64,000 bases of DNA from a phage. Location: assembly GCA_036252695.1 (NCBI GenBank), contig GCA_036252695.1_4122.1. The stretch is one strand, 5' to 3'. How positions within the stretch are numbered: position 1 is the first letter of the stretch; each line of letters starts with the position of its first letter. Under the pieces are notes generated by a model. It had not been told where the DNA came from. It saw only the letters and a program-made list of their open reading frames with translations, and searched no databases. This document shows positions 5,773 through 48,306 of this stretch, piece after piece. The position numbers and the translations under genes were made by a program.

Positions 5773-6458
5773 TTAAAGATTTAGATAGAATTTTATATGT
5801 ACTAAGGGGTGTAATTACATTACATCCACAAATCAATCGAATTGAAAGTACATTTCAGTTGGAGTCAAGAGAAACTCCATATTCACATATATCAAATGTA
5901 GTTGGTTCACTCAGTACTGAAGACTCGTCTTACGATATTTGTGTATGTGAAGTACAACCAAGTTCGGATCTTGGATTTGCTATTTTTGATAAAGATCAAA
6001 ATCTCATTAGTATGTTTCAGTGCAATAATCCTTTTTGGAAAACATGCCTGTATCCAGAGTGGGCTATGCTTGATCCAACCAAGAGTACCATTAAAGTTTA
6101 TGACTCTAAAAATGATGAAGTCGTTATTGATTTGGATGAGTCAATGTCAGAGGAAGAACACTTTCAGCTAATGATGATGCGTGCTATGCCGGAATACAAT
6201 GCAATGATTAACACTGTGCAATACATTAAGGATACCATGCCAGCGTTGCGTACACATGAGTTTTGTCATCCGGTATTGTATGAACATCTAGATTTAGACT
6301 TCAGTACTATTAAATTTAAAGATAGTGTTAAAAAATATATTCAAGAGAATGTTAAATTTGATTTTATTAGTACTATGAACAATAATCCAAAAACTAATTT
6401 TAGGCATCAGTACAATGAATCTTTGTCTAATGGACGTGATACCAGTTGGTGGAAATAA
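5769..6458 (+). CDS. hypothetical protein
   Basis: 229-aa ORF with stop-start overlap. Confidence 0.55.
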   Translation: MIKDLDRILYVLRGVITLHPQINRIESTFQLESRETPYSHISNVVGSLSTEDSSYDICVCEVQPSSDLGFAIFDKDQNLISMFQCNNPFWKTCLYPEWAMLDPTKSTIKVYDSKNDEVVIDLDESMSEEEHFQLMMMRAMPEYNAMINTVQYIKDTMPALRTHEFCHPVLYEHLDLDFSTIKFKDSVKKYIQENVKFDFISTMNNNPKTNFRHQYNESLSNGRDTSWWK

Positions 6459-6459
6459 T

Positions 6460-6723
6460 ATGAATATTCAAGATAGATTACAATTACTGTACACACTTGA
6501 ACAGGCTGCTTATGATCTTGTTCGAAAAATCTCAGATGAACTACCTAAAGGAACTAAAGTTCGTGTACGTGAGATGAATTATTTTTCTGGAGTAATTGAA
6601 GAACAAGTACTAACAGTGAATAAAGTAACATACTATGAATCTGAGTTGTCTATTCAGTGTGAATCTGATGATGGATTAATATCATATTATGGAACTGATG
6701 TAGATATAGAGGTAATAAAATGA
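6460..6723 (+). CDS. hypothetical protein, small paralog family
   Basis: Internal ATG at 6460 just after the upstream stop; LPKGTKVRVREMNYF motif like other small paralogs. Confidence 0.45.
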   Translation: MNIQDRLQLLYTLEQAAYDLVRKISDELPKGTKVRVREMNYFSGVIEEQVLTVNKVTYYESELSIQCESDDGLISYYGTDVDIEVIK

Positions 6724-7862
6724 CCCTTTTGCAAATATATGAAGATTTAATGCACTTATGTAATACAAACGATGCATTCTTTTATGTGGATCATAAAAGT
6801 CCTGCTGGTGGCACGTATCGTGTATTCAGTTATCGTCTAGCATCATACACTGATTTCATGCAACCAAATGCGTTGGAAACCCGTGGCTCTATGTGGGAAA
6901 TTGATGAAGAAGGTGAAATGATACGTTGTGCAGCACGTACAATGAAAAAGTTCTTCAATGCTTACGAGAATCCTGCTACAATGTTCCCTGCTAACACCAC
7001 ATGCGATGACATTGCGGTAGTGATGCCTAAGTTGGATGGTTCGATTATCAGTACTTACCGTGATAATGATGGTGAGATTCGTTGTAAATCACATACTGCA
7101 TTGTATTCTGACCATGCGATTAACAGTACTCGACTTATTAACGAGAACCAGAATTTGTATCAGTACATCGACGAAGCGGAACGTTTAGGTTACACAGTTA
7201 ATATGGAGTATACAAGCCCAGAGTACCGAATTGTATTACCATATCAGGTAGAACAACTGTTTGTACTGAACGTTCGTCATCGTGTGAGTGGTGAGTTGCT
7301 ATGTGGTAAAGCACTACGTGATAAGTTTCCATGTCTTGCACAGTACAGTACTAATATGACTGGAAAAGATATTCATCACACTTTTCCGGTACGAAATACC
7401 TTCCGTGAAAGCGTGGAGGAAGTTCATAAAATGCTTGATATTGAGGGTTTTGTGTGCATCCTAAATAATGGGACAATGTGTAAAATAAAGACTGACTGGT
7501 ACAGTTCATTACATCTTACAAAAGATAGTATTATTATTGATTCTCATTTATATGAAGCAGTATTAAATGGTTCAAGTGATGATTTAAAACAATTGTTCAG
7601 TACTGATGAATATGCTATGCAAAAGATATTAAGAATGGAACAATTGGTATTTTCGTGCTATAATGCATTACAAGATGAAGTAGAAAGCTTCGTCAAGGAA
7701 CACAAGCACTTGGAGCGAAAGGAATTCGCAATGAAGGTTCAGGAGTGTTTAACTAATGAACTGAATCGTCAGGGCTTGGCCTTTGCAATGTATAACAATA
7801 AGAAAGTTGATTACAAAGAGACTCTTATAAAATACATGAAAATTGTACTAAAGGATTTTTAG
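6720..7862 (+). CDS. rnlA: RNA ligase 1 (T4 gp63-like)
   Basis: 380-aa protein colinear with T4 Rnl1 as recalled: FFYVDHKS..GGTYRVFSY, ETRGSMWEI and the nucleotidyl-lysine motif MPKLDGS. Confidence 0.8.
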   Translation: MTLLQIYEDLMHLCNTNDAFFYVDHKSPAGGTYRVFSYRLASYTDFMQPNALETRGSMWEIDEEGEMIRCAARTMKKFFNAYENPATMFPANTTCDDIAVVMPKLDGSIISTYRDNDGEIRCKSHTALYSDHAINSTRLINENQNLYQYIDEAERLGYTVNMEYTSPEYRIVLPYQVEQLFVLNVRHRVSGELLCGKALRDKFPCLAQYSTNMTGKDIHHTFPVRNTFRESVEEVHKMLDIEGFVCILNNGTMCKIKTDWYSSLHLTKDSIIIDSHLYEAVLNGSSDDLKQLFSTDEYAMQKILRMEQLVFSCYNALQDEVESFVKEHKHLERKEFAMKVQECLTNELNRQGLAFAMYNNKKVDYKETLIKYMKIVLKDF

Positions 7863-7892
7863 TACTATCTAGCCTAAGCACAAGGAGAAGTG

Positions 7893-8147
7893 ATGGCTAA
7901 ACCTAAGTATAAAAATGACGGTTCCCTTTCTCCGACTGAGTTCAGGAAAATACAAGAAGAAATCGATGAATTACAGCACAAACGCTCAATGAAAGGTGTG
8001 AAGATAAGTAAGAAACGAATCGAGAATACCTTCGGATGTAGTAGTACTGAATACAAGAAGAAAAGGAAACCAAAAGGTGTTAAGCCGAGAATACATGATG
8101 TAACTCGCTATACATCGAAACGTGAAAATAAATTTGACCCACTATAA
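7893..8147 (+). CDS. hypothetical basic protein
   Basis: ATG at 7893 after AAGGAG; Lys/Arg-rich 85-aa product. Confidence 0.5.
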   Translation: MAKPKYKNDGSLSPTEFRKIQEEIDELQHKRSMKGVKISKKRIENTFGCSSTEYKKKRKPKGVKPRIHDVTRYTSKRENKFDPL

Positions 8148-8156
8148 GGAGTTCAT

Positions 8157-8393
8157 ATGAAAGTTGAAGTTCAGCATAGTATTGTTCAGGATATGTCAGT
8201 AGTTAAATTTCTTTCCTTGAAAGATTATTTCAGATGTATCAAGTTCCTAGAAGAATCTCAATTACAGTGGACCCCATTAAAGTACAGTTCATCCAATGAT
8301 ACTGCTAGTATTCGTTGTGATGAATCTGTACTTGTGAAAATCTCCAAGCGATTTGGAGTTGGGAAATATAATGATAAACAATGCACAAAGTAA
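8157..8393 (+). CDS. hypothetical protein
   Basis: 78-aa ORF. Confidence 0.45.
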   Translation: MKVEVQHSIVQDMSVVKFLSLKDYFRCIKFLEESQLQWTPLKYSSSNDTASIRCDESVLVKISKRFGVGKYNDKQCTK

Positions 8394-8682
8394 TTTACTA
8401 TATATAAAGTCAGTAGAAGCTGAAATTAAAAATTCAGTACAAACTATCGTCGATGAAATGATTGACAAATACAAGAGCAATCTTATTGGGAAGAAAGTCA
8501 GATGTTGGGATTACACATTTAAACACTGGTACGATTCCGAGATTGTGAAAGTTGATGTGAATACTGATAGTAATGGTCTAATTAATGGTATTGCGTATAT
8601 TGGTGTTTTAATACGAAAGGGAACACCACAGGAATGGCTCACCTATCATAATATAGAGCATGTTAAATTTTTAGAGGATTAA
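8371..8682 (+). CDS. hypothetical protein, small paralog family
   Basis: ATG at 8371; LIGKKVRCWDY motif; overlaps the previous ORF, so one of the two starts is uncertain. Confidence 0.45.
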   Translation: MINNAQSNLLYIKSVEAEIKNSVQTIVDEMIDKYKSNLIGKKVRCWDYTFKHWYDSEIVKVDVNTDSNGLINGIAYIGVLIRKGTPQEWLTYHNIEHVKFLED

Positions 8683-8685
8683 AGG

Positions 8686-9618
8686 ATGCCAACTATCACA
8701 CTAACAGTTGGATTGCCTGGGTGTGGTAAAACTACATGGGCAGTGCAAGAGATTAAAAAAGCCAAATCCAAGACTATCAACATCAACCGTGATGATATTC
8801 GTGAATCTATGGCTGGGTCACATGATGCTTACAAATTCAACGATGCTAATGAGCAGTACGTAGATAATTTACAGTTCAGTGCAGCAAATTCAGCAGCAGA
8901 GAATGGTTGGAACATCATAGTATCCGATACAAACCTTAAACCACATTTCCGTAATCTCTGGAAAGTATGGGCTACAGATAATGGTTATGATTACAAAGAA
9001 AAGAACTTCTATGATGATTTTGTACCTAATGAAGACCGTGGTGCAGATGTTCATGAATTCTTTAAGATTAAAGAGTTCGTAAAACTTTGTAAGAAATATA
9101 ACCTCCAGCGTGAGCGTTCAGTACCAGATGATATCATTGACAAAATGGCAGATACGTACTATTATAGTAAAGCATTACACATTGGTTACTATGGTAATTC
9201 ACGCGAAGCTGCTATCATCGTTGATATCGATGGAACTCTTGCTCATAAATGGGGTCGTAATCCTTACGATGAAAGTACTGTTCTTCAGGATACACCTGAT
9301 GAAGAAGTTATTTTGTCTATTATCGCTGAAGCAGTTTTTCATAAACGCAAGATTATCGTCATGAGTGGGCGTACTGAAGGGTGTCGTGCGGATACCGAAC
9401 AGTGGCTTAAGAATTGGGGTGTTCCTTACGATGCATTGTTTATGCGAGATATCGATGATAAACGTCCTGATGATGTTGTAAAATTCGACCTGTACATGAA
9501 AAATGTGGTTGATCATTACGATGTTAAAAAGGTATATGATGACCGCGATCAAGTTGTATTCATGTGGCGTAAGCTACTTGGGTTGAAAGTTTTCCAAGTG
9601 GCTGAAGGAAATTTCTAA
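8686..9618 (+). CDS. pseT: polynucleotide 5'-kinase / 3'-phosphatase
   Basis: N-terminal Walker A (GLPGCGKTT) kinase module and C-terminal DxDGT (VDIDGTLA) HAD-type phosphatase module; colinear with T4 Pnk; GAGGA RBS. Confidence 0.85.
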   Translation: MPTITLTVGLPGCGKTTWAVQEIKKAKSKTININRDDIRESMAGSHDAYKFNDANEQYVDNLQFSAANSAAENGWNIIVSDTNLKPHFRNLWKVWATDNGYDYKEKNFYDDFVPNEDRGADVHEFFKIKEFVKLCKKYNLQRERSVPDDIIDKMADTYYYSKALHIGYYGNSREAAIIVDIDGTLAHKWGRNPYDESTVLQDTPDEEVILSIIAEAVFHKRKIIVMSGRTEGCRADTEQWLKNWGVPYDALFMRDIDDKRPDDVVKFDLYMKNVVDHYDVKKVYDDRDQVVFMWRKLLGLKVFQVAEGNF

Positions 9619-9624
9619 TACAAA

Positions 9625-9654
9625 AGGGATCATATATTGGTCCCTTTTTCTTTT
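9625..9654 (+). terminator. rho-independent terminator
   Basis: 8-bp stem hairpin (agggatca / tggtccct) followed by a T-run after the pnk stop. Confidence 0.5.
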
Positions 9655-9685
9655 AAGGTACATTATAGTGAATGTAACAACACAG

Positions 9686-9844
9686 ATGTTATTACAAAAA
9701 GACTACTTAGAAAATATAGAACGATACTATAGATTGTCTTTGTATGAAAATAAGCATAAAAATTATAGTTTTGATAAACTACTAAATTCCAGTACTGATG
9801 ATTATCTATTTTCATCAATGTTTTATGTGAGAGGTTTATTATAA
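9686..9844 (+). CDS. possible small ORF (52 aa)
   Basis: ORF below the track cutoff in the 225-bp gap after the terminator; no clear RBS. Confidence 0.2.
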   Translation: MLLQKDYLENIERYYRLSLYENKHKNYSFDKLLNSSTDDYLFSSMFYVRGLL

Positions 9845-10104
9845 TGGATAAATTTCACACAGATATAACACAGATAGGTAATCTTATCAATAGTCTAATT
9901 ACTGATTTAGAAGAAAAGTACTTAGGTCGAAATGTATACGTAGAAATGTATGAAACATATGGTGTTATTGATATGATTTATTACAGTGCATTGAAGTGTG
10001 AAATACGTTTAACAGTATGTTTGTTTGAAAAAAATACATTCAACAGAAGTACTGCAATTCGCCAAGTTGGAGTTGATGATATAGAATTATACGAGGAACA
10101 ATGA
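9844..10104 (+). CDS. hypothetical protein, small paralog family
   Basis: 86-aa ORF with EEKYLGRNVYVEMY motif. Confidence 0.5.
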   Translation: MDKFHTDITQIGNLINSLITDLEEKYLGRNVYVEMYETYGVIDMIYYSALKCEIRLTVCLFEKNTFNRSTAIRQVGVDDIELYEEQ

Positions 10105-12571: not shown

Positions 12572-12787
12572 ATGATAACATTTTTTGCAATATATGGTTT
12601 TGTAGCATTTGTTACATTTATAACCAACTTTCTAGTACTTAATTGGGGTTGTTTTAAAGATGAAATCATGATTATCATGAATCTCCAAACAGCAGCACTG
12701 ATGGCTATTATTTGGCCTGTAACATTAGTATATATTTTTATTTCACTTACCCAAGATATTATTAACAAATATAAGAGAAAGAAATAA
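12572..12787 (+). CDS. small membrane protein
   Basis: 71-aa ORF with two hydrophobic helices. Confidence 0.45.
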   Translation: MITFFAIYGFVAFVTFITNFLVLNWGCFKDEIMIIMNLQTAALMAIIWPVTLVYIFISLTQDIINKYKRKK

Positions 12788-13038
12788 TGTTCAACACTGA
12801 CTTATCACATTTGCGATATCTTATGTCTTTGGCTGATGATTTTATAAATGATCTGAAGCCAAAATATATTGGTCAAGAAGTACGATTAATAAACTCCAGA
12901 GGGTATGGAAAGTATATTATTACTGATATGTATATTAGTGGTGGTGAATGGCGTTTTAAAATTAATACTTATCTTAAAGATGGTTCTTTTGCTGGAACAC
13001 AAGTTACTAAACACACTAATATTATATGGTTGGAGTAA
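12787..13038 (+). CDS. hypothetical protein, small paralog family
   Basis: 83-aa ORF with KPKYIGQEVRLIN motif. Confidence 0.5.
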   Translation: MFNTDLSHLRYLMSLADDFINDLKPKYIGQEVRLINSRGYGKYIITDMYISGGEWRFKINTYLKDGSFAGTQVTKHTNIIWLE

Positions 13039-13040
13039 TA

Positions 13041-13784
13041 ATGAAACACTTCTTAGAAGTAACTGTACCTGATGATAAAGATTTATACATTGTAGGTGAT
13101 TTGCATGGTAATGGTAAACTATGGGATGCTACAGTGAAAGAATTTGGTATTACACACAATGATTATGTTTTCAGTGTAGGTGATATTATCGACCGTGGAG
13201 AACAAAATTCAAAGCTCCTTTTTGAATTTTTGTTCGGAGAAAATCGTTACATGATTGCGGGTAATCATGAGATGATGTGCGTTGATTCGGAAACACTTCG
13301 AGATTGGTATCATTGTTGGATAAGTAATGGTGGTGATAAATTCCTTGATGAAGTTGGAGGAACAGGCATTCAATTCTTTCGTCAGTACTTAAAGGATCTC
13401 CCTATGATTATCCAAATCAATCACCGAGGATTGAAGATTGGGTTAGTTCATGCTGGAGTTCCGTTGGAATATACAACATGGGAACGATTTGTTAATGGGA
13501 CAAAATCACTTAGTGCTGATATAATTGATAAGTGCTTGTGGGATAGAAAAACATTCGATTATTGTAGAACTAATAATACATATTATGCACCTAAGTTAGA
13601 TGGAGTGCATTGTGTCTTTAGTGGACATACAGCAGTTACAGACCCACTCATTTACGGTAATCGCATTTGGATTGATAGTCAGTTCTTGACGGGTGACTTA
13701 ACTCTCGCTACTCCACAAAGTGGTGGGATGAGATACTTACGTAAAGAAAAAGATGAGTACTCATTCAATCGTTTCAAAAGGTAA
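13041..13784 (+). CDS. Ser/Thr protein phosphatase (calcineurin-like metallophosphoesterase)
   Basis: GDLHG, GDIIDRG and GNHE metal-binding motifs in canonical order; ATG at 13041 after GGAG. Confidence 0.75.
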   Translation: MKHFLEVTVPDDKDLYIVGDLHGNGKLWDATVKEFGITHNDYVFSVGDIIDRGEQNSKLLFEFLFGENRYMIAGNHEMMCVDSETLRDWYHCWISNGGDKFLDEVGGTGIQFFRQYLKDLPMIIQINHRGLKIGLVHAGVPLEYTTWERFVNGTKSLSADIIDKCLWDRKTFDYCRTNNTYYAPKLDGVHCVFSGHTAVTDPLIYGNRIWIDSQFLTGDLTLATPQSGGMRYLRKEKDEYSFNRFKR

Positions 13785-13789
13785 TAATT

Positions 13790-14059
13790 ATGCATGATGT
13801 AGTTAAAAAATATTTGAATGATAGATATATTATGAAAAAATCTATTAATTCTATCCTAAAAGACCATGCAAATCAAATACGTGAGATTCTATCAAATAAA
13901 CTTATTGGTTGTTCAGTTGAGTTCAACTACAAAAAGAATGTCGTGAAGGTTGGAGTTATTAAACGTGTAGTTGCTGTTTATGACCAAGATGTATATGTTG
14001 AAATAGAATATGATGGTAAATTATCACAATTAAGTACTGAAGATTTAACATTTTTATAA
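13790..14059 (+). CDS. hypothetical protein, small paralog family
   Basis: 89-aa ORF with SNKLIGCSVEF motif. Confidence 0.5.
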   Translation: MHDVVKKYLNDRYIMKKSINSILKDHANQIREILSNKLIGCSVEFNYKKNVVKVGVIKRVVAVYDQDVYVEIEYDGKLSQLSTEDLTFL

Positions 14060-14069
14060 GGAAATAGAA

Positions 14070-14297
14070 ATGAAAGTAATTCAAGTTATGGTAGAAAAAT
14101 ACCAAACTGAAGATGGTCGTATTTTTGATTCAGCTAAACAAGCTGAACACCATGAACGTATTATTTCTGGTGCACGTAAAGTATGTCCTACATGTAATGG
14201 AACACAACAAGTACCGTCAGAAGATTACCGCAGCTTTTATGCTTGTCCACACTGTGATGGGAAAGGCTACGTAGAAAAACAAGAGGTATGGAAATGA
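14070..14297 (+). CDS. small zinc-ribbon protein
   Basis: 75 aa with CPTC ... CPHC cysteine pairs. Confidence 0.45.
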   Translation: MKVIQVMVEKYQTEDGRIFDSAKQAEHHERIISGARKVCPTCNGTQQVPSEDYRSFYACPHCDGKGYVEKQEVWK

Positions 14298-14707
14298 AAT
14301 TGTATTGCTTAACTAATATGTACTGCCAAGGTGTCCAAGCTGGTATTCAAGCATTCCATGCTGGTGTTAAACTAATTAAAGAATATGAAGGTACTGCTTT
14401 CAGTACTATTATTGATGAATGGTACTATGAACACGAAACTATTGTAGTACTAAATGCTGGTGGACATGATAAGTTAAATTCTTATTATAACAACCTTAGC
14501 AAACAGGGAAAAGTTCCGTTTGCCAAATTCAATGAAGCTGGATTGAATGATGCTATTACCTGTGTAGCAGTACTGTGTACGTCTGAAATGATTGAAGACA
14601 TGGCTGTTATGCGTATGAATCTTCCTGCTGGTGATCAACTAATGCAAGTAAAATATGGTGCATTGTTTGACACATTAAAAGCAATCAGTACAATGAGGAC
14701 TATTTGA
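14288..14707 (+). CDS. hypothetical protein
   Basis: 139-aa ORF with stop-start overlap. Confidence 0.5.
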   Translation: MEMKLYCLTNMYCQGVQAGIQAFHAGVKLIKEYEGTAFSTIIDEWYYEHETIVVLNAGGHDKLNSYYNNLSKQGKVPFAKFNEAGLNDAITCVAVLCTSEMIEDMAVMRMNLPAGDQLMQVKYGALFDTLKAISTMRTI

Positions 14708-15906
14708 TGGATTTTCCAGAGAAGTTATTTGTTGCACGTTCCTATGTAAACCACAACCAAGTTGATGGTTTTATTATCGATGCAACAAAATCACATACAA
14801 AAGCGTTTGAAACAAAGAAAGAGAGAGCAGAGTACTGGGCAAAGAAGAACAATCTTCCATCGTTATATATTGACAACGTTCCAACTACGGGATTTTGTGT
14901 AGTTGATAAATTAACAACTCATGCACGAGAAACATATTTCACGATCCGTCACCCAGAAGGATTTGAATTTATGATTAGTGCAAAAAACATGAATGATTTA
15001 ATTATCAATAACGATATAATCAAAGGTGTTTTTGTAGACCCAATGTTTTTCAACAATAACTTAGAATTAATTAATGGTAAAACAAAAACGTTTGCTAAGT
15101 TAGTTGAAAAAGAAAATAAAAAAGAACAACAAAAAGAAACTGTAGCAGGTCTTAAAGTTGGTGATGGTTTCACTTATCTTAAAGAAGATTACTATTACTG
15201 CGGTAAAGTACATGCAATTTGTATAAAGAAAACTAAAGAATTTGCATATCCCGACAAAAGTTCAGTTTATCATTTACTTTTTAACAGTACTCGTGGAACT
15301 TATGCATTGAATCAACGTTTGGATAATTACAATCTTGAACCTCGTGCACTCTTGAATAAGAAGACTACGGCAGATGAAGAAATTAAACTTGCTAATGAAT
15401 TTTGGCAAAGCTATAGAACAAACAGACATAACCCATTAGGTGAATCTAACATTCCAGTACTGGTACACAATAAATCATTTAAAGCAAAAGACCTTAAAAT
15501 TAAATACGAAGAAATAAATGTTGATGATCTTATGAATAATGGACGTTTCAACGAGAACGTACCATTTATGACTAAAGATAATGAACAAACATATCGCGTA
15601 TTTTTTGGTGTAAGTAATAATACAACGCGTAGTTATTATGGACGTAGCGGGGATTATAATATTCATTATAATGATAAATTTGAACGCTTTAGTGCATACC
15701 CAGTTCAAATTGATGATAATGGAATTATGTCAATGGATGTTGATATTAATGAGCACACATCATTTAGTACATGGAACGGTTATCGTTCACCATTCTTCCC
15801 ACCAAATGAACGCAAAACATCAAGTTCTCGTTACTACCAAGATAAGCCGTGCCACGTCCAGCTATCAATTAATAATCCACTTTATATTGGAAAGTATTAT
15901 CTATAA
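14704..15906 (+). CDS. hypothetical protein
   Basis: 400-aa ORF with ATGA overlap; no motif recognised. Confidence 0.55.
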   Translation: MMDFPEKLFVARSYVNHNQVDGFIIDATKSHTKAFETKKERAEYWAKKNNLPSLYIDNVPTTGFCVVDKLTTHARETYFTIRHPEGFEFMISAKNMNDLIINNDIIKGVFVDPMFFNNNLELINGKTKTFAKLVEKENKKEQQKETVAGLKVGDGFTYLKEDYYYCGKVHAICIKKTKEFAYPDKSSVYHLLFNSTRGTYALNQRLDNYNLEPRALLNKKTTADEEIKLANEFWQSYRTNRHNPLGESNIPVLVHNKSFKAKDLKIKYEEINVDDLMNNGRFNENVPFMTKDNEQTYRVFFGVSNNTTRSYYGRSGDYNIHYNDKFERFSAYPVQIDDNGIMSMDVDINEHTSFSTWNGYRSPFFPPNERKTSSSRYYQDKPCHVQLSINNPLYIGKYYL

Positions 15907-15917
15907 AGGAATATACA

Positions 15918-17336
15918 ATGAGCATTTTAGCAATTCTTGAAAGCATTAAAAATACTAGCAGTACTCTAGGCAAAAAAGCTATTCTTGAACAAAATAAAGA
16001 TAATGTAACTTTACAAAAAGTACTGAAATATACACTCGATCCTAGTATTGTAAGTGGGTATAAAAAGCTACCAGACGCTGATAACGTGTATCAACATATG
16101 ACCTTGGATGAAGCTATTGATAAACTAGAATGCATCTATAAGCGTGCATTGACGGGACATACAGGGCGTGATTTCATTGCTTCAGTACTAGGTAGTGTGA
16201 GTCCAGATGATGCTGAAGTTCTTCGTAAGATGCTTACAAAGAACTTAGATTGTGGTATTCAAGAAAAGAACTGCAATGATGTATTTGGTAAAGGATTTAT
16301 TAAAGATGAACCATATATGCGTTGTTCTTTGCTTGATAAAAAGACTGTTAAGAACATCAACTTCAAAGGTCATGGTTATGCTGTCTCCGAGGTCAAGATG
16401 GATGGTCAGTACTTAAACCATGTAGTCATTAATGGTGCTCTTACCTCTTCCTCCCGTAATGGTAAACTATATGACTTCTTAGGTTGTCGTGATGGTGAGA
16501 TGGCAGGTCTTGCACATCAAATTCAAATGAATGATGAACGTTTTAGTAGTGGTGTCGTCTTTATGGGTGAAGGTCTAGTACTTGATAATGACGGTGAAAC
16601 TATTCTTCCACGAACAACTGGTAATGGTATCATTCAGAAGGCTGGTAAAGATAGTATTAGTCAGAATGAAGCAATGCGTACTGTATTTGTACTATGGGAT
16701 GTTGTTCCTTATGATGCATTCTGTGAAGGTACATGGAATGTAAAACGTAAAGAACGCCGAGAACTTCTTGAATCTGCCATCAATGCATTGGGTAGTGATT
16801 TTGTACGTATGGTGAAATACCGTAAGGTTCAAAACATTAAAGAAGCATTTGAGTACAATAACGAACTCATGGATCAGGGTGAAGAAGGTTCAGTACTGAA
16901 ATGTGAAGATGGTATCTGGAAATCACATACATCTCCTAAGCAGTTGAAAGTAAAACTAAAAATGCAATTGGATTTGCGTATTGTTGGTTTCAACGAAGGT
17001 GAAGGTAAGCGTAAAGGTTCACTTGGTTCTTTACAACTTGAAAGTGCATGTGGCACACTGAAGGTAAATGTAGGAACAGGTATCCGTGAAAAAGATGCAG
17101 AGTGGACATTCAAAACCATTTGGGAACGAATGCAAGAACTAATTGGTAAAGTCGTTACCGTTGAGTGCAATGAGATTGTAATCGACAAGCGTACAGGTGA
17201 ACCATCACTATTTTTACCAGTGTTTATTGAATTTAGATTTGACAAAAACACATGTGACGATTATACTCGTATTTTAGAAATTCGTGATAGTGCTGTTGAG
17301 GTATTCTCGAACAGTATCATTGAAGCACTTAGCTAA
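15918..17336 (+). CDS. ATP-dependent DNA ligase (T4 gp30-like)
   Basis: 472 aa; KxDG adenylation motif (EVKMDGQ); N-terminus (ILEQNKDN) colinear with T4 DNA ligase as recalled. Confidence 0.85.
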   Translation: MSILAILESIKNTSSTLGKKAILEQNKDNVTLQKVLKYTLDPSIVSGYKKLPDADNVYQHMTLDEAIDKLECIYKRALTGHTGRDFIASVLGSVSPDDAEVLRKMLTKNLDCGIQEKNCNDVFGKGFIKDEPYMRCSLLDKKTVKNINFKGHGYAVSEVKMDGQYLNHVVINGALTSSSRNGKLYDFLGCRDGEMAGLAHQIQMNDERFSSGVVFMGEGLVLDNDGETILPRTTGNGIIQKAGKDSISQNEAMRTVFVLWDVVPYDAFCEGTWNVKRKERRELLESAINALGSDFVRMVKYRKVQNIKEAFEYNNELMDQGEEGSVLKCEDGIWKSHTSPKQLKVKLKMQLDLRIVGFNEGEGKRKGSLGSLQLESACGTLKVNVGTGIREKDAEWTFKTIWERMQELIGKVVTVECNEIVIDKRTGEPSLFLPVFIEFRFDKNTCDDYTRILEIRDSAVEVFSNSIIEALS

Positions 17337-17355
17337 TCATTTATTGGAGGTAATT

Positions 17356-18147
17356 ATGAAATTTGTTGTAACATCTGACGTACACGGTGGAACTGATTAC
17401 CTCCATAGCGGTGATTACAGTGATGTAGTACTGATCATTGCTGGTGACTTTGATGAAGTGAAACGTAGTCGTTATCGTACTGGGATCGAAGAACTGTGTA
17501 AGCAGTTCTATAAGGTAGTACTGGTTCCAGGAAATCACGAATACTACGGTTCCAATATCCAAAAGACGCATCAAGTACTGTCCGATATGCAAGATGAGAT
17601 TCCTAATTTTATCTTTTTGCAAAACAAATTTGTATGGCTGGATGGAGTACTGCTTGTTGGTAGTACTCTGTGGACAGACTTCGATAAAGGTAATTCTTTG
17701 ACGAAGTTTGATGCTCGTCAGAAGATGAACGATTACAAACATATCCGTCATGGAACAACATCAGAGCCTTGGCGTAAGAAACTGACACCTGATGATACTG
17801 AGTTTATGCATCACAAAGATAAACAATTTATCAAAAATTCTATTGACACAGTTCGCTTTATGCATGATAATGATTTCAAGGTCATCGTGATTACTCATCA
17901 CGCACCAAGTTATCAAAGTGTTTCACCAAAATATAAAAATGATTCACTAAATGGTTGTTACTGTTCCGATATGGATCAGTACATTGAAGATTTGGGTGCT
18001 GATGTTTGGATTCATGGTCATGTTCATAGTAGCTTTGACTACCACATTGGTAAGACACGTATCATTTGTAATCCACGAGGCTATGAATCGTATAGTGGAG
18101 CTTGTGAGAATTTTGATTACAATCCTAAATTTGTATTTGAAATTTAA
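17356..18147 (+). CDS. metallophosphoesterase
   Basis: SDVHGG, AGDFD, GNHEYY and GHVHSS motifs; ATG at 17356 after GGAGG. Confidence 0.7.
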   Translation: MKFVVTSDVHGGTDYLHSGDYSDVVLIIAGDFDEVKRSRYRTGIEELCKQFYKVVLVPGNHEYYGSNIQKTHQVLSDMQDEIPNFIFLQNKFVWLDGVLLVGSTLWTDFDKGNSLTKFDARQKMNDYKHIRHGTTSEPWRKKLTPDDTEFMHHKDKQFIKNSIDTVRFMHDNDFKVIVITHHAPSYQSVSPKYKNDSLNGCYCSDMDQYIEDLGADVWIHGHVHSSFDYHIGKTRIICNPRGYESYSGACENFDYNPKFVFEI

Positions 18148-24545: not shown

Positions 24546-24746
24546 ATGATGGCATACACAATTTATGAATGGGTTTTGAGTTTTTTTATAGTTTTTTCTA
24601 TTGTTGTAATTTATAACAATGCTAAATGCTTATATAGGGACTTGAAATCCAATGGTTATCACAAAGATAATAATTTTATGTATGCCTATCATATTGGAAT
24701 CATTCTGTTATTATCAATATATTTAATTGTTTTTTATAAGGATTGA
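24546..24746 (+). CDS. small membrane protein
   Basis: 66 aa with two hydrophobic helices. Confidence 0.45.
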   Translation: MMAYTIYEWVLSFFIVFSIVVIYNNAKCLYRDLKSNGYHKDNNFMYAYHIGIILLLSIYLIVFYKD

Positions 24747-24748
24747 AT

Positions 24749-25501
24749 ATGATATCAGAAAAATTTATAAGCAATGAAGGTAAAAAGCGATTACTGATTA
24801 TATCAGGTGCAGGACTTTCTGTTGAAAGTGGTATGGAACCTTTTCGATTTGATGATGGTTTGTGGGATACATTTAAAATTAATGATGTATGTAACATTGC
24901 TAGTTTAACTACAAAATATCATGTTGTTCATTCTTTCTATAATACATTACGTGTAAAATTGGGACAATGCGAACCAAATGCAATGCATTATTTTATAAAA
25001 TCGTTAGAAGATCAATATGGTGATTGCTTCCTTCATATGACTTCTAACATGGACGATCTTTATACTCGTATTGGTGGTCATGAGCTTAAACTTCATGGAA
25101 ACTTGTGTGAAGTTATTGAAAATTATAGTATCAATTCTGATGATTATAATGTTATTAACTGCGGATACGAACCATACATACCAAAACATGATGTTTTTGC
25201 TAAACCAAATGTAGTAATGATTGGAGAATATCATCGTTATGTTGATGGTATACGCTTACCAATTTACGAAGAACGAAATAATGTGTTGAAATCTCTTAAT
25301 GAAAATGATACAGTTATTGTAATTGGTAGTAGCGATACAGTACTGGTATGGTCGAGATTAGCAGCAGCATTACCATGTTATAGTGTTAATGTTAACATTC
25401 GTAAAAATGATAATGATTTTTTGTTTAATGAAAAAGTTATCAAGCCAGCAACCAAAGCAATACCACATCTAGAGACTATAATTAAGGAACGTATGAAATG
25501 A
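24749..25501 (+). CDS. Sir2-family NAD-dependent deacylase (CobB-type sirtuin)
   Basis: ISGAGLSVESGMEPFRFDDGLW NAD-binding motif; PNAMH..HMTSNMDDL (TQNID-like) and catalytic LHG colinear with E. coli CobB as recalled; ATG at 24749 after AAGGA. Confidence 0.75.
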   Translation: MISEKFISNEGKKRLLIISGAGLSVESGMEPFRFDDGLWDTFKINDVCNIASLTTKYHVVHSFYNTLRVKLGQCEPNAMHYFIKSLEDQYGDCFLHMTSNMDDLYTRIGGHELKLHGNLCEVIENYSINSDDYNVINCGYEPYIPKHDVFAKPNVVMIGEYHRYVDGIRLPIYEERNNVLKSLNENDTVIVIGSSDTVLVWSRLAAALPCYSVNVNIRKNDNDFLFNEKVIKPATKAIPHLETIIKERMK

Positions 25502-26049
25502 GTGTTAAAGAAGTTCCCTTTGGTGAATATGGCTCACGTGCAAATTTTGTATTTTGTTATTTCTTTGCAAGAAAATGTAACCCTTACAAAAACTATGAGT
25601 TGAATGATATACCAGAAGTAAATTTAGTTTTACTACAATTACGATGGGATGGTCTTCTTGGTGGATGTGGTGGAACCGTAGAAAGTACTGATATCTCACT
25701 AGAAGATGCGTTGCGTCGTGAAGTTCAAGAAGAAATGGATTACAATATTTTTGTTTCCCATCTTCGACCACTCAAAACTTTTGAAATTTACCCAGGTGCA
25801 AACAGTCACAGTTTTAGCTATGAAGTAACCTATGACGAGTTGAAACACATTAGAGATGGATACACTAATGCTAAACATGCAAGTGCAGAAGTTGCTGGTG
25901 TAAATTTATGTCATATTTCTCGTTATTCTAAGGGACAAAATCGAGAAGCGGGATATAATAATCTTATGACACAGAACTTCATCGGTACAGCAAGACAAGA
26001 ATTGGAGTATCTGGTTCAAAAAGAAAACTTACTAATTAGTTATCTATAG
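25498..26049 (+). CDS. Nudix-like hydrolase
   Basis: Nudix-box-like GGTVEST..LRREVQEEMDY segment (spacing slightly non-canonical); ATGA overlap with the sirtuin gene. Confidence 0.5.
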   Translation: MSVKEVPFGEYGSRANFVFCYFFARKCNPYKNYELNDIPEVNLVLLQLRWDGLLGGCGGTVESTDISLEDALRREVQEEMDYNIFVSHLRPLKTFEIYPGANSHSFSYEVTYDELKHIRDGYTNAKHASAEVAGVNLCHISRYSKGQNREAGYNNLMTQNFIGTARQELEYLVQKENLLISYL

Positions 26050-26058
26050 GAGTTTAAC

Positions 26059-26379
26059 ATGTCTTACGCAATGTTTTTGGATGATATTCGTGATGCAAAT
26101 CTATATTATCCAAACCAAGATATGGTGGTATGTCGTGACTTTAAAAGTGCATGTGAATATGTTATTGAAAATGGAATTCCAGCATTTGTATCATTCGACC
26201 ATGACTTGGGTGATGTGAGCGAAGACGAAAAGACTGGATATTCTTTTGCTAAGTTTCTTATTGATTATATGTTTGATAATAATATTAAAGAACCGTTTGA
26301 GTACTTTGTTCACAGTAGTAATCCTGTTGGTAAAATTAATATTGAAACATACTTAAACAATGGATTTAACGCATTATGA
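26059..26379 (+). CDS. hypothetical protein, possibly receiver-like fold
   Basis: 106 aa with LDDIRD, VSFDHDLG and VHSSNPVG in the order of receiver-domain acidic pocket / Asp / Ser-Thr positions; weak inference. Confidence 0.45.
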   Translation: MSYAMFLDDIRDANLYYPNQDMVVCRDFKSACEYVIENGIPAFVSFDHDLGDVSEDEKTGYSFAKFLIDYMFDNNIKEPFEYFVHSSNPVGKINIETYLNNGFNAL

Positions 26380-26678
26380 TTCAAACACACATCAAAAGTC
26401 TTATTTGTACTGTTCTGTTAGGTGCAGGAGTTCTTTGGTTCGGACAGTATCACGAGAACACTAAGCGTACCAACATTCACTACAATACCGCAGAAGTTGT
26501 TAGTTTAGGACAATGTAGCGAGTCCAAATGTTCATTCATGTATAAAACCCAAAGTGGTGAAGTACGTAATGGACTATCAAGAGAACCAGTTTCAATTGGT
26601 CAACTTGTTTACCAGGAGTGCTGGGAAGAAAAGGTTCGAGGTTCACGTTGCTATGTTGAATACGAACCAAATATGTAA
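26376..26678 (+). CDS. membrane-anchored hypothetical protein
   Basis: 100 aa with an N-terminal hydrophobic helix; stop-start overlap. Confidence 0.5.
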   Translation: MIQTHIKSLICTVLLGAGVLWFGQYHENTKRTNIHYNTAEVVSLGQCSESKCSFMYKTQSGEVRNGLSREPVSIGQLVYQECWEEKVRGSRCYVEYEPNM

Positions 26679-26738
26679 TAATCCGAGTCAATAACATTAG
26701 TCGAGTACAAGGATGTACTCATAACTCAAGGATGTTTT

Positions 26739-40627: not shown

Positions 40628-41215
40628 ATGGCATTTAAAATAAGAGCAGACCTTAAGGCAATGCAACAAGTTACAGTACAGGGTAAAAGTACTGGACTTG
40701 GTGTATTAGGTAATAATATGACTTATTACCCAACAAATTCAAATGGGGAATGTACATTCCCCTCTATTACCAAAGATGAAGTTAACTTTATTGTCAATGG
40801 ATTACCACTTACACAATACGGAGAATTGTATGATGACGCTAGTCTAAATATTACTTCATCAGGCTATAGTCTTACATTTAATAGACAGATACCATCATTT
40901 ATTGGTGGTTATCTTTATAAATTTCCAGCAGTTTCTATTTTTGCTTCAACTGTTTCATCTGGAACACAAACACAATATGTATATGCAACGTTAGTTCTCG
41001 GTGAACCAATTTATAAAATATCACCAACACAAATACAAGAATCTGAAATTATAATGTTTATTGGAACACTGACCGTTGGTACAAGTGGTATTACAAATAT
41101 AAACATTAATAAAGTATCCAGATTTAGTACATATAGACCTAGTGTTACACAAAAAGGTTCTTCATTCCCAGTCAGTACTGGAAAACCATCAGAAACTGGT
41201 ACAATTGGTTGGTAA
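40628..41215 (+). CDS. short fibre-related protein sharing the C-terminal module
   Basis: 195 aa ending KVSRFSTYRPSVTQKGSSFPVSTGKPSETGTIGW, matching the C-termini of both large neighbours. Confidence 0.5.
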   Translation: MAFKIRADLKAMQQVTVQGKSTGLGVLGNNMTYYPTNSNGECTFPSITKDEVNFIVNGLPLTQYGELYDDASLNITSSGYSLTFNRQIPSFIGGYLYKFPAVSIFASTVSSGTQTQYVYATLVLGEPIYKISPTQIQESEIIMFIGTLTVGTSGITNININKVSRFSTYRPSVTQKGSSFPVSTGKPSETGTIGW

Positions 41216-41231
41216 ATTAAGGAAAAGAAAG

Positions 41232-45631: not shown

Positions 45632-46033
45632 ATGACTACAGTTGATGATATCTATAGCACTATACGCAATATGAGTACAGATAGAAAAGTATTTGGCGAT
45701 AAAGAAAAATCTAAGTGTTATGGTATTGATTCTTTTGATATAATTTCTTATGAGTACAATACAAGTGGAAATAGTTCACTGAATATCGTCTGTCCTCGTG
45801 ATCCAGAAAATAATTTTATGTATGTTGAAATTAATAATGATGGAATGTTTTTTACAAAAGTTTTCAAAGGTGGAATTAATTACGAACCTATTGAATGTAT
45901 GAATGAAGAAACTTTCTTTCAAGAAGATACAATTATCAATTTAGGTTTTAGTTTTGATGATTATAAAACATTAGAACATGACTTTAATCGTTATTATAAT
46001 GGTTTCTTAAAGGAGTTAACAATTTATCTATGA
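45632..46033 (+). CDS. hypothetical protein
   Basis: 133-aa ORF. Confidence 0.5.
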   Translation: MTTVDDIYSTIRNMSTDRKVFGDKEKSKCYGIDSFDIISYEYNTSGNSSLNIVCPRDPENNFMYVEINNDGMFFTKVFKGGINYEPIECMNEETFFQEDTIINLGFSFDDYKTLEHDFNRYYNGFLKELTIYL

Positions 46034-48306
46034 ATAACCAATATATTGAACAAACAATAGTGAAACACTTGGCTGGGTCACAAGCCTACGGAACCAGTAC
46101 ACCTGAAAGTGATACTGATTATCGTGGTATTTTTCTTGCTAATAAAGAATTTATTCTTACACCCTTCTATAAGGTCAAAGAGGTAGCTGATAAAAGCGAA
46201 GAAGATACTAAATTCTATGAGTTGAATCAGTATTTAAAATTATACACTGAAGCTAACCCTAATATTCTTGAATCACTTTGGGTTGAACCTGAACACATTG
46301 TTGAAAGTACTGAAATTTATGACTATCTTCGTTCATTTAACCAAAAACTTCTTAGTTCCAAGATTGCATTTTCATATACTGGTTATGCATATAATCAGAT
46401 TAAGCGTATGACAAATCATCACGGTTGGATGGATAAAGAGCATATTGCTGAACGTAAACTAAATGAAATTTTAGAAGAACATCCAGTCGATGAGGTTCTT
46501 GCGTGGATGTATGATTCATTTCCACAATATCTTGTTGAACGTTTAGATACATCGAACTTACATCCATTTAATGCTAAAAAGATTGATTTTGAAAAATATA
46601 TGCGTGATACGTCATTGCAGTTAGTTTCGAAAAATCCATTAAAGCAATATCATTTTGTAAGATTAGTGCATAACTACACTACTGATAAAATTCTAGATCG
46701 TGATTTCAATTTATTGAATTTTAATAATGGCTATGAACTAATTCATTACGGAGAAAACATTTTTGCGATTATTAAAAATCCGAATGAAAGTACTATCAAT
46801 GCTGATGGTTCACTACGTTACTTCAATAAAGAACGTACTTCGGAAGAATTAAAAGTTCGTCCTGAACTCATTGTAAAATTCAATGAAAAGGAATACAAAG
46901 AAAATAGTGAGAACCGTAAGAGTTATCACAAATGGAAGCAGAACCGTAATGCCAAACGTGCTATTCTTGAATCACACCACGGTTATGACTGTTATAGTTT
47001 TGATACTGAATTCTTAACTAAAGATGGTTGGAAGTTATTTGATGATATTACTGAAAACGATCTATTAGCTACTTTTGACAAAAATCACAAAGTTGAATAT
47101 CAGAAATACACTGAACGTTTTGATAATTTATATAATGGCAATCTATACCATTTCACTGGTCATCACCAAGATACTTTAGTGACTGCTAACCACCGAATGT
47201 ATGTTAAGGATTATGCACGAAATCAACAAAAAGATATGTCTGATTGGAAATTTGTAGAAGCAGCACAATTAAAAGAAACATATAAAATTTTGAATACAAT
47301 ATCCCCAATAACTAAAGAACACAAAGATAAAAAAAGTCCAATTGACTACATGGATATCAAAGTTTATCTTCAACTCATGGGATGGTTTATTTCAGATGGG
47401 TGCATAAATTTCAGGGATGGTAAAGTAAAATCTTTATATATTTCCCAGTCAAAAACTAGTCAAGGTATGCGTTGTGCTTTATCAAAATACAAAAAATCTG
47501 GTCAATTAATGTTTAATGAATACATTATAGAAAAGAAAGATTATCAAGCTAATGACGAATCAAGATATACATTCCCAAGTGAAGTAGCTGAAGCATTATA
47601 TAATGATTGTGGACATGGTTCATATAATAAACGAATTCCAAATTGGGTATTTGATTTAACAAAACGTAAAATGGATTTCCTTCTGAAAGGTTTGTTACAA
47701 GGGGATGGAACAAAACGAAATTTAGTTAATGACAATGATACATTTGTATATTATACTGCCAATTCATTATTAGCTGATGATGTTCAAAAACTAGCATTAC
47801 TATGTGGTTATGAAACATCAAAATGGGGACCATACACAAACGAAACCAATTTTGGTAGTGTTGATATATATCAAATTCATATCAATATGAAACCCAAAAC
47901 CGAAAAAATGAACATGAAACAAAATCTTGAAAAAATTCCAGTTACTAATTACAGAACTGTGTGTTTTTCTGTTCCCAACGGAACACTCATTACTCGTAGA
48001 AATGGAAAAACCGCATTACATGGAAATTGCAAACATGCTATGCATACAATCAGGCTGCTGAATACAGCCGAGGAAGCACTTGAAACTGGTATCATCCAAG
48101 TTCACCGACCGGATGCTGCTATGTTGATGGACATTCGTAACGGGAAGTGGTTGTATCAAGAAGTTATGGATTATTTCAACGAAAAGGTTGACTACATCCG
48201 AAATGTGGCGTATCATAAAACTCATCTACCGAAGCGACCGAACATAAAGTTGGCGACAAAGGTACTATTAGATATCCGTGAAATGCAATGGTACAGTAAA
48301 AAATAA
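46030..48306 (+). CDS. Pol-beta-superfamily nucleotidyltransferase interrupted by an intein-like insertion
   Basis: N-terminal LAGSQAYGTSTPESDTDYRG (GS...SDxD) nucleotidyltransferase motif; a central ~346 aa carries intein/homing-endonuclease hallmarks. Confidence 0.55.
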   Translation: MNNQYIEQTIVKHLAGSQAYGTSTPESDTDYRGIFLANKEFILTPFYKVKEVADKSEEDTKFYELNQYLKLYTEANPNILESLWVEPEHIVESTEIYDYLRSFNQKLLSSKIAFSYTGYAYNQIKRMTNHHGWMDKEHIAERKLNEILEEHPVDEVLAWMYDSFPQYLVERLDTSNLHPFNAKKIDFEKYMRDTSLQLVSKNPLKQYHFVRLVHNYTTDKILDRDFNLLNFNNGYELIHYGENIFAIIKNPNESTINADGSLRYFNKERTSEELKVRPELIVKFNEKEYKENSENRKSYHKWKQNRNAKRAILESHHGYDCYSFDTEFLTKDGWKLFDDITENDLLATFDKNHKVEYQKYTERFDNLYNGNLYHFTGHHQDTLVTANHRMYVKDYARNQQKDMSDWKFVEAAQLKETYKILNTISPITKEHKDKKSPIDYMDIKVYLQLMGWFISDGCINFRDGKVKSLYISQSKTSQGMRCALSKYKKSGQLMFNEYIIEKKDYQANDESRYTFPSEVAEALYNDCGHGSYNKRIPNWVFDLTKRKMDFLLKGLLQGDGTKRNLVNDNDTFVYYTANSLLADDVQKLALLCGYETSKWGPYTNETNFGSVDIYQIHINMKPKTEKMNMKQNLEKIPVTNYRTVCFSVPNGTLITRRNGKTALHGNCKHAMHTIRLLNTAEEALETGIIQVHRPDAAMLMDIRNGKWLYQEVMDYFNEKVDYIRNVAYHKTHLPKRPNIKLATKVLLDIREMQWYSKK
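46990..48027 (+). mobile_element. intein-like element with LAGLIDADG homing endonuclease
   Basis: Begins CYSFDTEFLTKDGW (block A-like), then TANH (block B-like), two LAGLIDADG-like motifs (LMGWFISDGC and LKGLLQGDGT), ends ..ALHGN followed by Cys. Confidence 0.45.

Follow-up and report, generated by a model that had tools for sequence, protein, structure and literature searches.

Gene organisation of the rnl1–pnkp region

The window analysed here, a 64 000-nucleotide (64-kb) stretch of DNA, originates from an Asteriusvirus jumbo phage, a member of a group of giant E. coli phages. Its features of interest are collected in Table 1. Homologues of RNA ligase 1 (Rnl1) and of polynucleotide kinase/phosphatase (Pnkp) had been placed less than 2 kb apart by the initial annotation; both open reading frames (ORFs) were recovered at exactly the same positions, co-oriented on the plus strand with rnl1 upstream and with 823 bases between them.

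Table 1. Features of the RNA-repair genes and of associated loci; positions refer to the 64-kb window.
Feature	Position	Strand	Size	Basis and remarks
Predicted RNA ligase 1 (Rnl1), T4 RnlA family	6720..7862	+	380 aa	family and structure matches, residue mapping
Small, very basic ORF	7890..8147	+	85 aa	phrog_15306 (E 1e-41); no assigned function
Small ORF	8157..8393	+	78 aa	phrog_14730 (E 7e-47)
Small ORF	8371..8682	+	103 aa	phrog_31355 (E 2.5e-56); ATG start as annotated in phAPEC6
Predicted polynucleotide 5′-kinase/3′-phosphatase (Pnkp), T4 PseT type	8686..9618	+	310 aa	family and structure matches, residue mapping
Terminator-like hairpin	9622..9648	+	11-bp stem, then T-run	pattern match only
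Lambda-phosphatase-type metallophosphoesterase	13026..13784	+	252 aa	Pfam Metallophos
Second metallophosphoesterase, calcineurin type	17284..18147	+	287 aa	Pfam Metallophos (E 4e-13)
RlaP, RNA-ligase-associated Pol-beta nucleotidyltransferase	46030..48306	+	758 aa	PF10127
Class II tRNA nucleotidyltransferase, CCA-adding type	60813..61925	+	370 aa	Pfam PolyA_pol and PolyA_pol_RNAbd

The ORFs from rnl1 to pnkp are tightly packed, and the gap between the two genes contains three small ORFs. The 85-aa ORF is annotated as hypothetical in phAPEC6. The counterpart of the 78-aa ORF in Salmonella phage SD-15_S21 is joined to Pnkp in a single in-frame fusion. For the 103-aa ORF an alternative TTG start at 8353 would give a product of 109 aa; this slot is variable among relatives, being occupied by two small ORFs in G17 (whose ORFs are annotated as identical to those of 121Q) and lost in SD-15_S21. 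The hairpin begins 4 bases past the pnkp stop codon, a terminator is annotated at the equivalent position in the G17 record, and the structure probably closes the transcription unit that includes pnkp. A scan for sigma-70-like promoters returned 22 candidates against 24.7 expected from shuffled sequence, so no promoter is claimed.

A recurring "KY-G--V" pattern suggested that the ORFs of about 85–110 aa near the pair might form one paralogous family. This was rejected: all-against-all BLASTP and phmmer comparison of these ORFs gave a sole link, between 9844–10104 and 12787–13038 (E 5e-4), and HMM iteration from that link recruited no further ORFs. A BLASTP link between Rnl1 and the ORF at 41142–43961 (E 0.001, 20 % identity) was likewise attributed to chance.

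Relationship to published phages

Positions 6400–9700 share 99.6 % nucleotide identity with phAPEC6 and SHEFM2K, in which the two genes carry the GenBank names RNA ligase 1 and polynucleotide 5′-kinase/3′-phosphatase; at the protein level, Rnl1 and its SHEFM2K counterpart are 100 % identical. Published Asteriusvirus orthologues are those of phAPEC6 (gp376c/gp372c), SHEFM2K, PBECO4, 121Q and G17. The whole region, with both ORFs at full length, is present in 34 of the 36 matched Asteriusvirus records, and related jumbo phages such as GAP32 and the Erwinia Eneladusvirus phages also encode both Rnl1 and Pnkp. The window shows no material difference from phAPEC6, SHEFM2K or other published Asteriusvirus phages at this region and departs from them outside it, for example in the RlaP intein described below. 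The gene pair is thus already known from the annotation of dozens of public Asteriusvirus genomes, and counteraction of Prr by phAPEC6 has been proposed by the authors of that genome (PMC7247149); being both annotated and discussed in print, the pair is ordinary as a discovery.

Conserved motifs of Rnl1

Family scores of both proteins lie far above chance level. Rnl1 matched Pfam RNA_lig_T4_1 (E 1e-15), PHROG 562 (E 3.5e-109) and T4 Rnl1 in the PDB (2c5u; E 1.1e-56), and scored 293.2 bits on the NCBIfam equivalog TIGR02308 "T4 RnlA family RNA ligase" (cut-off 242.25). Residues 268–379 matched the C-terminal helical domain PF20819 T4_Rnl1_C (E 6.6e-17); an all-helical domain at this end is the tRNA-specificity module that distinguishes Rnl1 from Rnl2–6 (PMC6379707). 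By these matches, Rnl1 is assigned to the T4-type RNA ligase 1 family.

The catalytic lysine is kept in the pairwise as well as the family alignment: motif I reads K104-L-D106-G107 (KLDG), K104 aligns with the adenylylated lysine K99 of T4, and K104, D106 and G107 are invariant among 79 family sequences. Motifs III, IV and V are represented by the invariant columns E163, E242-G243, K255 and K257 (T4 E159, E227-G228 and K240/K242). In the ATP-contacting N-terminal sub-domain, invariance is complete for R55 and K77 and nearly so (at least 90 %) for F79; these correspond to T4 R54, K75 and F77, and the roles of the first two in T4 Rnl1 have been described (PMC6379707). Pairwise alignment thus recovered equivalents of T4 R54, K75, F77, K99, D101 and G102 as well as of E159, E227, G228, K240, K242 and D272, and all twelve mapped positions are invariant in the 79-sequence alignment with the sole exception of F79.

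The motif Ia lysine (T4 K119) is replaced by His125. This position is occupied by K in 40, H in 25, Q in 7 and N in 7 of the 79 sequences, with variation throughout the jumbo-phage clade; a lysine in so variable a column does not define the family. Of its neighbours, K123 (T4 K117) occurs in all 79 sequences and S124 (T4 S118) in 77. According to mutagenesis in the Shuman laboratory, K119 is reportedly essential in T4 Rnl1.

Conserved motifs of Pnkp

Pnkp matched Pfam AAA_33 (E 2.9e-13), the C-terminal HAD phosphatase family PF25109 HAD_PNKP (E 7.9e-44), PHROG 505 (E 2.8e-96) and T4 Pnk in the PDB (1ltq; E 9.2e-41). The N-terminal P-loop kinase carries the Walker A motif GLPGCGKT (G9-LPGCG-K15-T16) together with D36, R39, D81 and R142. 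K15, D36 and R142 are invariant among 72 sequences, R142 corresponding to T4 R126 in 72/72. The DxDGT nucleophile motif of the HAD domain takes the form DIDGT (D180-I-D182-G-T184) and is invariant in the same alignment, as are R191, R229, D262, K266 and D285-D286; pairwise alignment with T4 likewise retained both signature motifs. Equivalents of T4 K15, D35, R38, D85, R126, D165 and D167, and also of T169, R176, R213, D254, K258, D277 and D278, are all kept. From these matches and residues, Pnkp is predicted to be a bifunctional T4-type polynucleotide 5′-kinase/3′-phosphatase.

The kinase domain contains a clade-specific insert of about 17–21 aa (residues ∼109–128), which could alter its interface, and carries Tyr138 where T4 has R122. 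This insert and His/Gln/Asn at Rnl1 motif Ia are marks of the jumbo-phage (Rak2-like) clade. Compared with phage Turkey3, dN/dS was 0.06 for Rnl1 and 0.13 for Pnkp; both genes evolve under purifying selection.

Comparison with T4 and with bacterial repair systems

T4 RnlA (gp63, Rnl1) and PseT (Pnkp) belong to the same two families and have equal domain architectures. Identity over aligned residues is 38.5 % for Rnl1 and 41.1 % for Pnkp, and the catalytic residues are alike save for the motif Ia replacement. Relative to T4, Pnkp has the additional kinase-domain insert and 7 aa fewer in the phosphatase domain. The order and orientation rnlA, small ORFs, pseT are shared, and a DNA ligase gene lies about 6–7 kb downstream in both phages (6.3 kb here). 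The intervening small ORFs, which correspond in position to T4 alc and pseT.1–3, fall into separate PHROG families without assigned function, and the pair resides here in an Asteriusvirus genome of about 350 kb, as opposed to that of a member of the Straboviridae. Mending of tRNA is the established task of the pair in T4, and in the T4 record rnlA is annotated as repairing tRNA, together with PseT, in restrictive prr hosts. The earlier reading of the pair as a tRNA break-repair module is supported by the matching architecture, order and orientation, with function assigned by homology.

The same heal-and-seal logic is found in the bacterial Pnkp1-Rnl-Hen1 and Clostridium thermocellum Pnkp/Hen1 systems, and Pnkp matched Pnkp1 over its full length (PDB 4xrp; E 1.7e-31). 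In contrast to these systems, the ligase here is a separate Rnl1-type protein and no Rnl4-type domain; no Hen1 methyltransferase was detected among the ORFs scanned.

Further candidate RNA-repair genes in the window

The initial annotation had also held that a CCA-adding enzyme and a metallophosphoesterase enlarge the repair set beyond the classical T4 pair. A CCA-adding-type enzyme is indeed encoded, 51 kb away and for that reason not as part of one module with the pair. It matched phrog_2244 "tRNA nucleotidyltransferase" (E 7e-116) and CCA/A-adding enzymes in the PDB. The best NCBIfam match was PRK10885 (E. coli Cca; E 2e-81); being limited to profile positions 1–207 of 409, it falls below the equivalog cut-off. 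Head and neck thus resemble E. coli Cca, and the C-terminal half of Cca is uncovered by any match; these scores speak for the family, and specificity for CCA, as against A-only or poly(A) addition, is putative.

The metallophosphoesterase part of that proposal fared less well: two such proteins, both of calcineurin type, are present, and no link of either to RNA repair was found in this analysis. The first is a homologue of lambda protein phosphatase (PDB 1g5b, E 2.8e-16; phrog_246, NinI-like Ser/Thr phosphatase), for which a part in RNA-end healing is possible. The second (phrog_1649) adjoins the DNA ligase gene on its downstream side and gave no match in a PDB sequence search; a 400-aa ORF beside the DNA ligase gene (14704–15906) was without Pfam, NCBIfam or PDB match.

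The most relevant additional component, RlaP, had been overlooked. Residues 13–131 matched PF10127 with 55.5 bits (gathering cut-off 23), and two stretches matched phrog_388 (E 4.9e-75) on either side of an intein. Alignment with intein-free alleles delimited the latter to 346 aa (C321–N666, nt 46990–48027; +1 residue Cys667). The intein includes a LAGLIDADG-type endonuclease domain and is rare, the insert being common only to phage TH47. RlaP is likely to be a third member of the RNA-repair set. An RNA repair set of jumbo phages extended beyond that of T4 has been described by Iyer, Anantharaman, Krishnan, Burroughs and Aravind (2021; PMC7824862); the distribution of RlaP mirrors that of RNA ligases, and lost nucleotides are predicted to be restored before ligation. 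The allele in the window differs from those complements in bearing an intein. Bacterial RlaP adds 1–2 NMPs to RNA 3′-OH ends and is required in vitro for over-damaged tRNA to regain function (PMC12776372).

RtcB, Rnl2, 2H phosphoesterase, Thg1 and tRNA genes were absent from the 64-kb window; a tRNA/tmRNA scan and a search for Rfam families at gathering score were negative throughout it.

Proposed function and alternative explanations

The pair very probably constitutes a T4-type heal-and-seal RNA repair system in an Asteriusvirus jumbo coliphage. Homology, catalytic residues intact, purifying selection and T4-like gene order are the basis for this reading in the window; from T4 we infer the enzymatic steps, the tRNA substrate and the role against host defence. 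Cleavage of the tRNA anticodon loop by PrrC or a comparable anticodon nuclease of the host would leave a 2′,3′-cyclic phosphate and a 5′-OH. The cyclic or 3′ phosphate would be removed by the C-terminal HAD domain of Pnkp with Asp180 as nucleophile, and the 5′-OH would be phosphorylated by the N-terminal P-loop kinase. Rnl1, adenylylated on Lys104, would then transfer AMP to the 5′-phosphate and seal the break, its C-terminal domain presumably directing it to tRNA anticodon loops. Points against this reading are the His125 replacement in motif Ia, the kinase-domain insert and Tyr138; the ligase may also have a second role, since gp63 of T4 promotes tail-fibre attachment as well. RlaP and the CCA-adding-type enzyme probably extend repair to ends from which nucleotides have been lost.

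This last point leads to an extension that is compatible with heal-and-seal repair and that we consider plausible, if still tentative: the pair may be one arm of a broader pathway that reaches beyond PrrC-type clean cuts. RlaP would act after healing by Pnkp and before sealing by Rnl1, re-adding one or two nucleotides cut out by wobble-excising nucleases such as RloC, and the CCA-adding-type enzyme would rebuild damaged 3′ ends. The presence of RlaP and of a class II tRNA nucleotidyltransferase in one window, the parallel distribution of RlaP and RNA ligases in jumbo phages, and the activity of bacterial RlaP on over-damaged tRNA all favour it. However, the intein must splice for RlaP to work, and with RlaP 36 kb and the CCA-adding-type gene 51 kb from pnkp there is no operon link in the genome. 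A more specific version, in which Rnl1 and Pnkp of the Rak2-like clade and phage RlaP form a three-enzyme system for "repair-defying" lesions such as RloC-type wobble-nucleotide excision, is speculative and rather unlikely on present evidence.

It is improbable that the genes serve mainly non-tRNA roles, with Rnl1 acting in gp63-like fibre attachment and Pnkp as a DNA 3′-phosphatase or end-processing enzyme. T4 Pnkp works on DNA ends too, and the downstream DNA ligase gene, placed as in T4, fits such a role; the annotation of gp63 in T4 reads "RNA ligase and tail fiber protein attachment catalyst", and "tail" is the category given to PHROG 562. Yet the catalytic residues of ligase and kinase/phosphatase are strictly conserved, a constraint that non-enzymatic fibre attachment would not impose, the tRNA-specificity domain is retained in Rnl1, and the tail fibres of Asteriusvirus differ from those of T4. 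That the genes are decaying relics of lost activity, as the motif Ia replacement, the kinase-domain insert with R122 changed to Tyr and the ORF fusion in SD-15_S21 might suggest, is scarcely credible in view of the low dN/dS values, the full-length ORFs in nearly all matched records, the mapped catalytic residues intact apart from the motif Ia lysine, and the occurrence of the His/Gln/Asn variants and the insert throughout an otherwise conserved clade.

Heal-and-seal repair of tRNA is thus retained as the preferred reading. If the three-enzyme pathway were true, the counter-defence range of these phages would be wider than that of T4, and the mobile RlaP intein would mark a gene selected strongly enough to sustain a homing element. 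The finding is of little discovery value and is confirmatory in kind: an rnl1–pnkp pair of T4 type, intact and under selection, is maintained in a giant coliphage that also encodes RlaP and a CCA-adding-type enzyme, and this combination makes these phages a convenient system in which to ask whether repair aided by RlaP can overcome anticodon nucleases that excise the wobble nucleotide.

Ligase and kinase–phosphatase: Homologues of RNA ligase 1 (Rnl1) and polynucleotide kinase/phosphatase (Pnkp), which the initial annotation had proposed to form a tRNA break-repair module, were found exactly where it had placed them, with family and structure matches to both. The Rnl1 ORF carries the Pfam domains RNA_lig_T4_1 and T4_Rnl1_C, the latter representing the C-terminal tRNA-specificity domain (for its role see PMC6379707). 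It was assigned to PHROG 562 ('RNA ligase and tail fiber protein attachment catalyst', E 3.5e-109), matches the solved T4 Rnl1 structures 2c5u, 5tt6 and 9do4 at approximately E 1e-56, and scores 293 bits against the NCBIfam equivalog TIGR02308 ('T4 RnlA family RNA ligase'; curated cut-off 242). The Pnkp ORF contains AAA_33 and HAD_PNKP, belongs to PHROG 505 ('polynucleotide kinase', E 2.8e-96) and matches T4 Pnk (1ltq, E 9e-41) and bacterial Pnkp1 (4xrp, E 2e-31). By these matches the two proteins are assigned as an Rnl1 and a Pnkp.

Features of the proposed RNA-repair set in the window
Feature	Position (nt)	Strand	Length (aa)	Remarks
Rnl1	6720-7862	+	380	Pfam, PHROG, PDB and NCBIfam matches
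Pnkp	8686-9618	+	310	Pfam, PHROG and PDB matches
Strong terminator-like hairpin	9622-9648			After pnkp; pattern match
Calcineurin-type metallophosphoesterase 1	13026-13784	+		Lambda protein-phosphatase homologue (1g5b, E 3e-16)
Calcineurin-type metallophosphoesterase 2	17284-18147	+
RlaP nucleotidyltransferase (PF10127)	46030-48306	+
Intein in RlaP	46990-48027	+	346	Cys321-Asn666; +1 residue Cys667
Class II tRNA nucleotidyltransferase	60813-61925	+		Head and neck similar to E. coli Cca

Residue mapping: Both proteins were aligned to the enzymes from the T4 genome record and placed in wide family alignments of database homologues. T4 Rnl1 residues R54, K75, F77, K99, D101, G102, E159, E227, G228, K240, K242 and D272 correspond to R55, K77, F79, K104 (the catalytic lysine), D106, G107, E163, E242, G243, K255, K257 and D287; all are invariant among 79 sequences save F79, which is nearly so. 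The sole mapped deviation is in motif Ia, where T4 K119 is replaced by His125. This column holds K in 40 sequences, H in 25, Q in seven and N in seven, and the change is therefore common to the whole Rak2-like jumbo-phage clade; K123 (T4 K117), next to it, is invariant.

Counterparts of the T4 kinase and phosphatase residues in Pnkp are K15 and T16 (Walker A), D36, R39, D81, R142, D180, D182 and T184 (DxDGT), R191, S227, R229, D262, K266, D285 and D286. Pairwise alignment had matched T4 R126 with Q141; the family alignment places it at R142, which is invariant (72/72 sequences). T4 R122 is Tyr138 in the window protein. Approximately 17–21 extra residues in the kinase domain (around residues 109–128) are specific to the jumbo-phage clade, being common to Asteriusvirus, GAP32, fHe-Yen9-04 and Erwinia jumbo phages and absent from T4. 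With the ligase lysine, Walker A and DxDGT motifs all kept, the alignments to the T4 enzymes and families support the tRNA-repair reading, and none of the motif losses that would speak against it was seen.

Gene order and selection: The pair has the same order and direction as in T4 (rnlA, alc/pseT.3/.2/.1, pseT), and a DNA ligase gene lies 6–7 kb further downstream in both phages. The three small ORFs between rnl1 and pnkp belong to PHROGs 15306, 14730 and 31355, which have no assigned function. The third slot differs among relatives: phage G17, whose ORFs are annotated as identical to those of 121Q, has two small ORFs there, and in Salmonella phage SD-15_S21 (OR699188; 2258-3409) the 103/109-aa ORF has been deleted, which leaves the 78-aa ORF before it joined in frame to Pnkp; the resulting product of 383 aa is annotated as hypothetical. 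The G17 record also annotates a terminator at the hairpin site after pnkp; a promoter scan was uninformative.

Comparison with phage Turkey3 (93 % identical) gave dN/dS values of 0.06 for Rnl1 and 0.13 for Pnkp, which indicate purifying selection; both genes are T4-type homologues under constraint. In the same comparison (6720-9618), dS was 0.58 for rnl1 and 0.05–0.12 for two small ORFs and pnkp downstream; such strong unevenness points to mosaicism through recombination, with a boundary close to where rnl1 ends.

Wider RNA-repair set: The initial annotation had extended the repair set to a CCA-adding enzyme and a metallophosphoesterase. This extension is partly borne out: genes of both types exist, but no evidence tying either metallophosphoesterase to RNA ends was found in this analysis. 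The tRNA nucleotidyltransferase, 51 kb away from pnkp, matches E. coli Cca with E 2e-81 across profile positions 1–207; no match covers the C-terminal half of Cca. The most pertinent extra gene, overlooked previously, is RlaP, an RNA-ligase-associated nucleotidyltransferase. Its occurrence in jumbo phages reportedly follows that of RNA ligases, and it is predicted to restore lost nucleotides ahead of ligation (PMC7824862); nucleotide addition by bacterial RlaP is reported in PMC12776372.

RlaP is 758 aa long because of its intein, which has a LAGLIDADG-type endonuclease domain (match to LAGLIDADG_3) and resembles, in its N-terminal Hint-like part, the AceL NrdHF intein; it ends in G-N666/C667, with Gly rather than His as the penultimate residue. 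The alleles of phAPEC6 and vB_Ec-M-J (410–412 aa) are free of the intein, and aligning them with the window protein demonstrated a clean insertion. TH47 (MT446416) is the only one of the 34 Asteriusvirus records with a match that has the insert.

Other genes in the window: The DNA ligase gene (15918-17336) is flanked on both sides by the metallophosphoesterases (13026-18147). Ahead of it lies a conserved ORF of 400 aa (14704-15906, phrog_14061) with no match in Pfam, NCBIfam or PDB. A conflict-type gene group (24743-28178 and 30444-31415) begins with a Sir2 gene (24743-25501), which overlaps the gene for a Nudt16-like NUDIX hydrolase (25498-26049). It also includes a PIN-PhoH fusion (26739-28178) and a protein of 323 aa (30444-31415) with a C-terminal WGR domain and no assigned domain in its N-terminal 255 aa. 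Two large paralogous proteins of 898 and 939 aa (37920-40616 and 41142-43961; 27 % identical full-length, no Pfam domain) enclose a 195-aa ORF (40628-41215) that matches the N- and C-termini of both and resembles a third copy with an internal deletion. Five small paralogous ORFs (ca. 90–100 aa each) form a tandem array at 1177-2586. A loose 'KY-G--V' pattern recurs in several ORFs of ca. 85–110 aa near 9844-10104 and 12787-13038; these two are weakly alike (phmmer E 5e-4), and a single family was not established.

Relatives and proposed function: Across region 6400-9700, the window shares 99.6 % identity with the Escherichia phages SHEFM2K (Rnl1 protein 100 % identical) and vB_EcoM_phAPEC6, and 93–99 % with about 30 further Asteriusvirus jumbo phages (320–385 kb), whose hosts are E. 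coli and Salmonella. The pair itself is not new: Asteriusvirus records already name RNA ligase 1 and polynucleotide 5'-kinase/3'-phosphatase, the pair has been interpreted in the literature, and the extended jumbo-phage complement (Rnl1/Rnl2/RtcB, PNK-HAD, RlaP, CCA-adding enzyme) appears in PMC7824862. Only the clade-wide Lys-to-His change in motif Ia, the kinase-domain insert and the rare RlaP intein are mildly new.

The pair is best explained by the T4 heal-and-seal pathway. Cleavage by an anticodon nuclease would leave a 2',3'-cyclic or 3' phosphate and a 5'-OH; Pnkp would remove the former and phosphorylate the latter, and Rnl1, directed by its C-terminal domain, would then close the break by way of a lysyl-AMP intermediate. 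From this likeness to T4 we infer that the substrate is cleaved tRNA and that the pair may serve in anti-defence.
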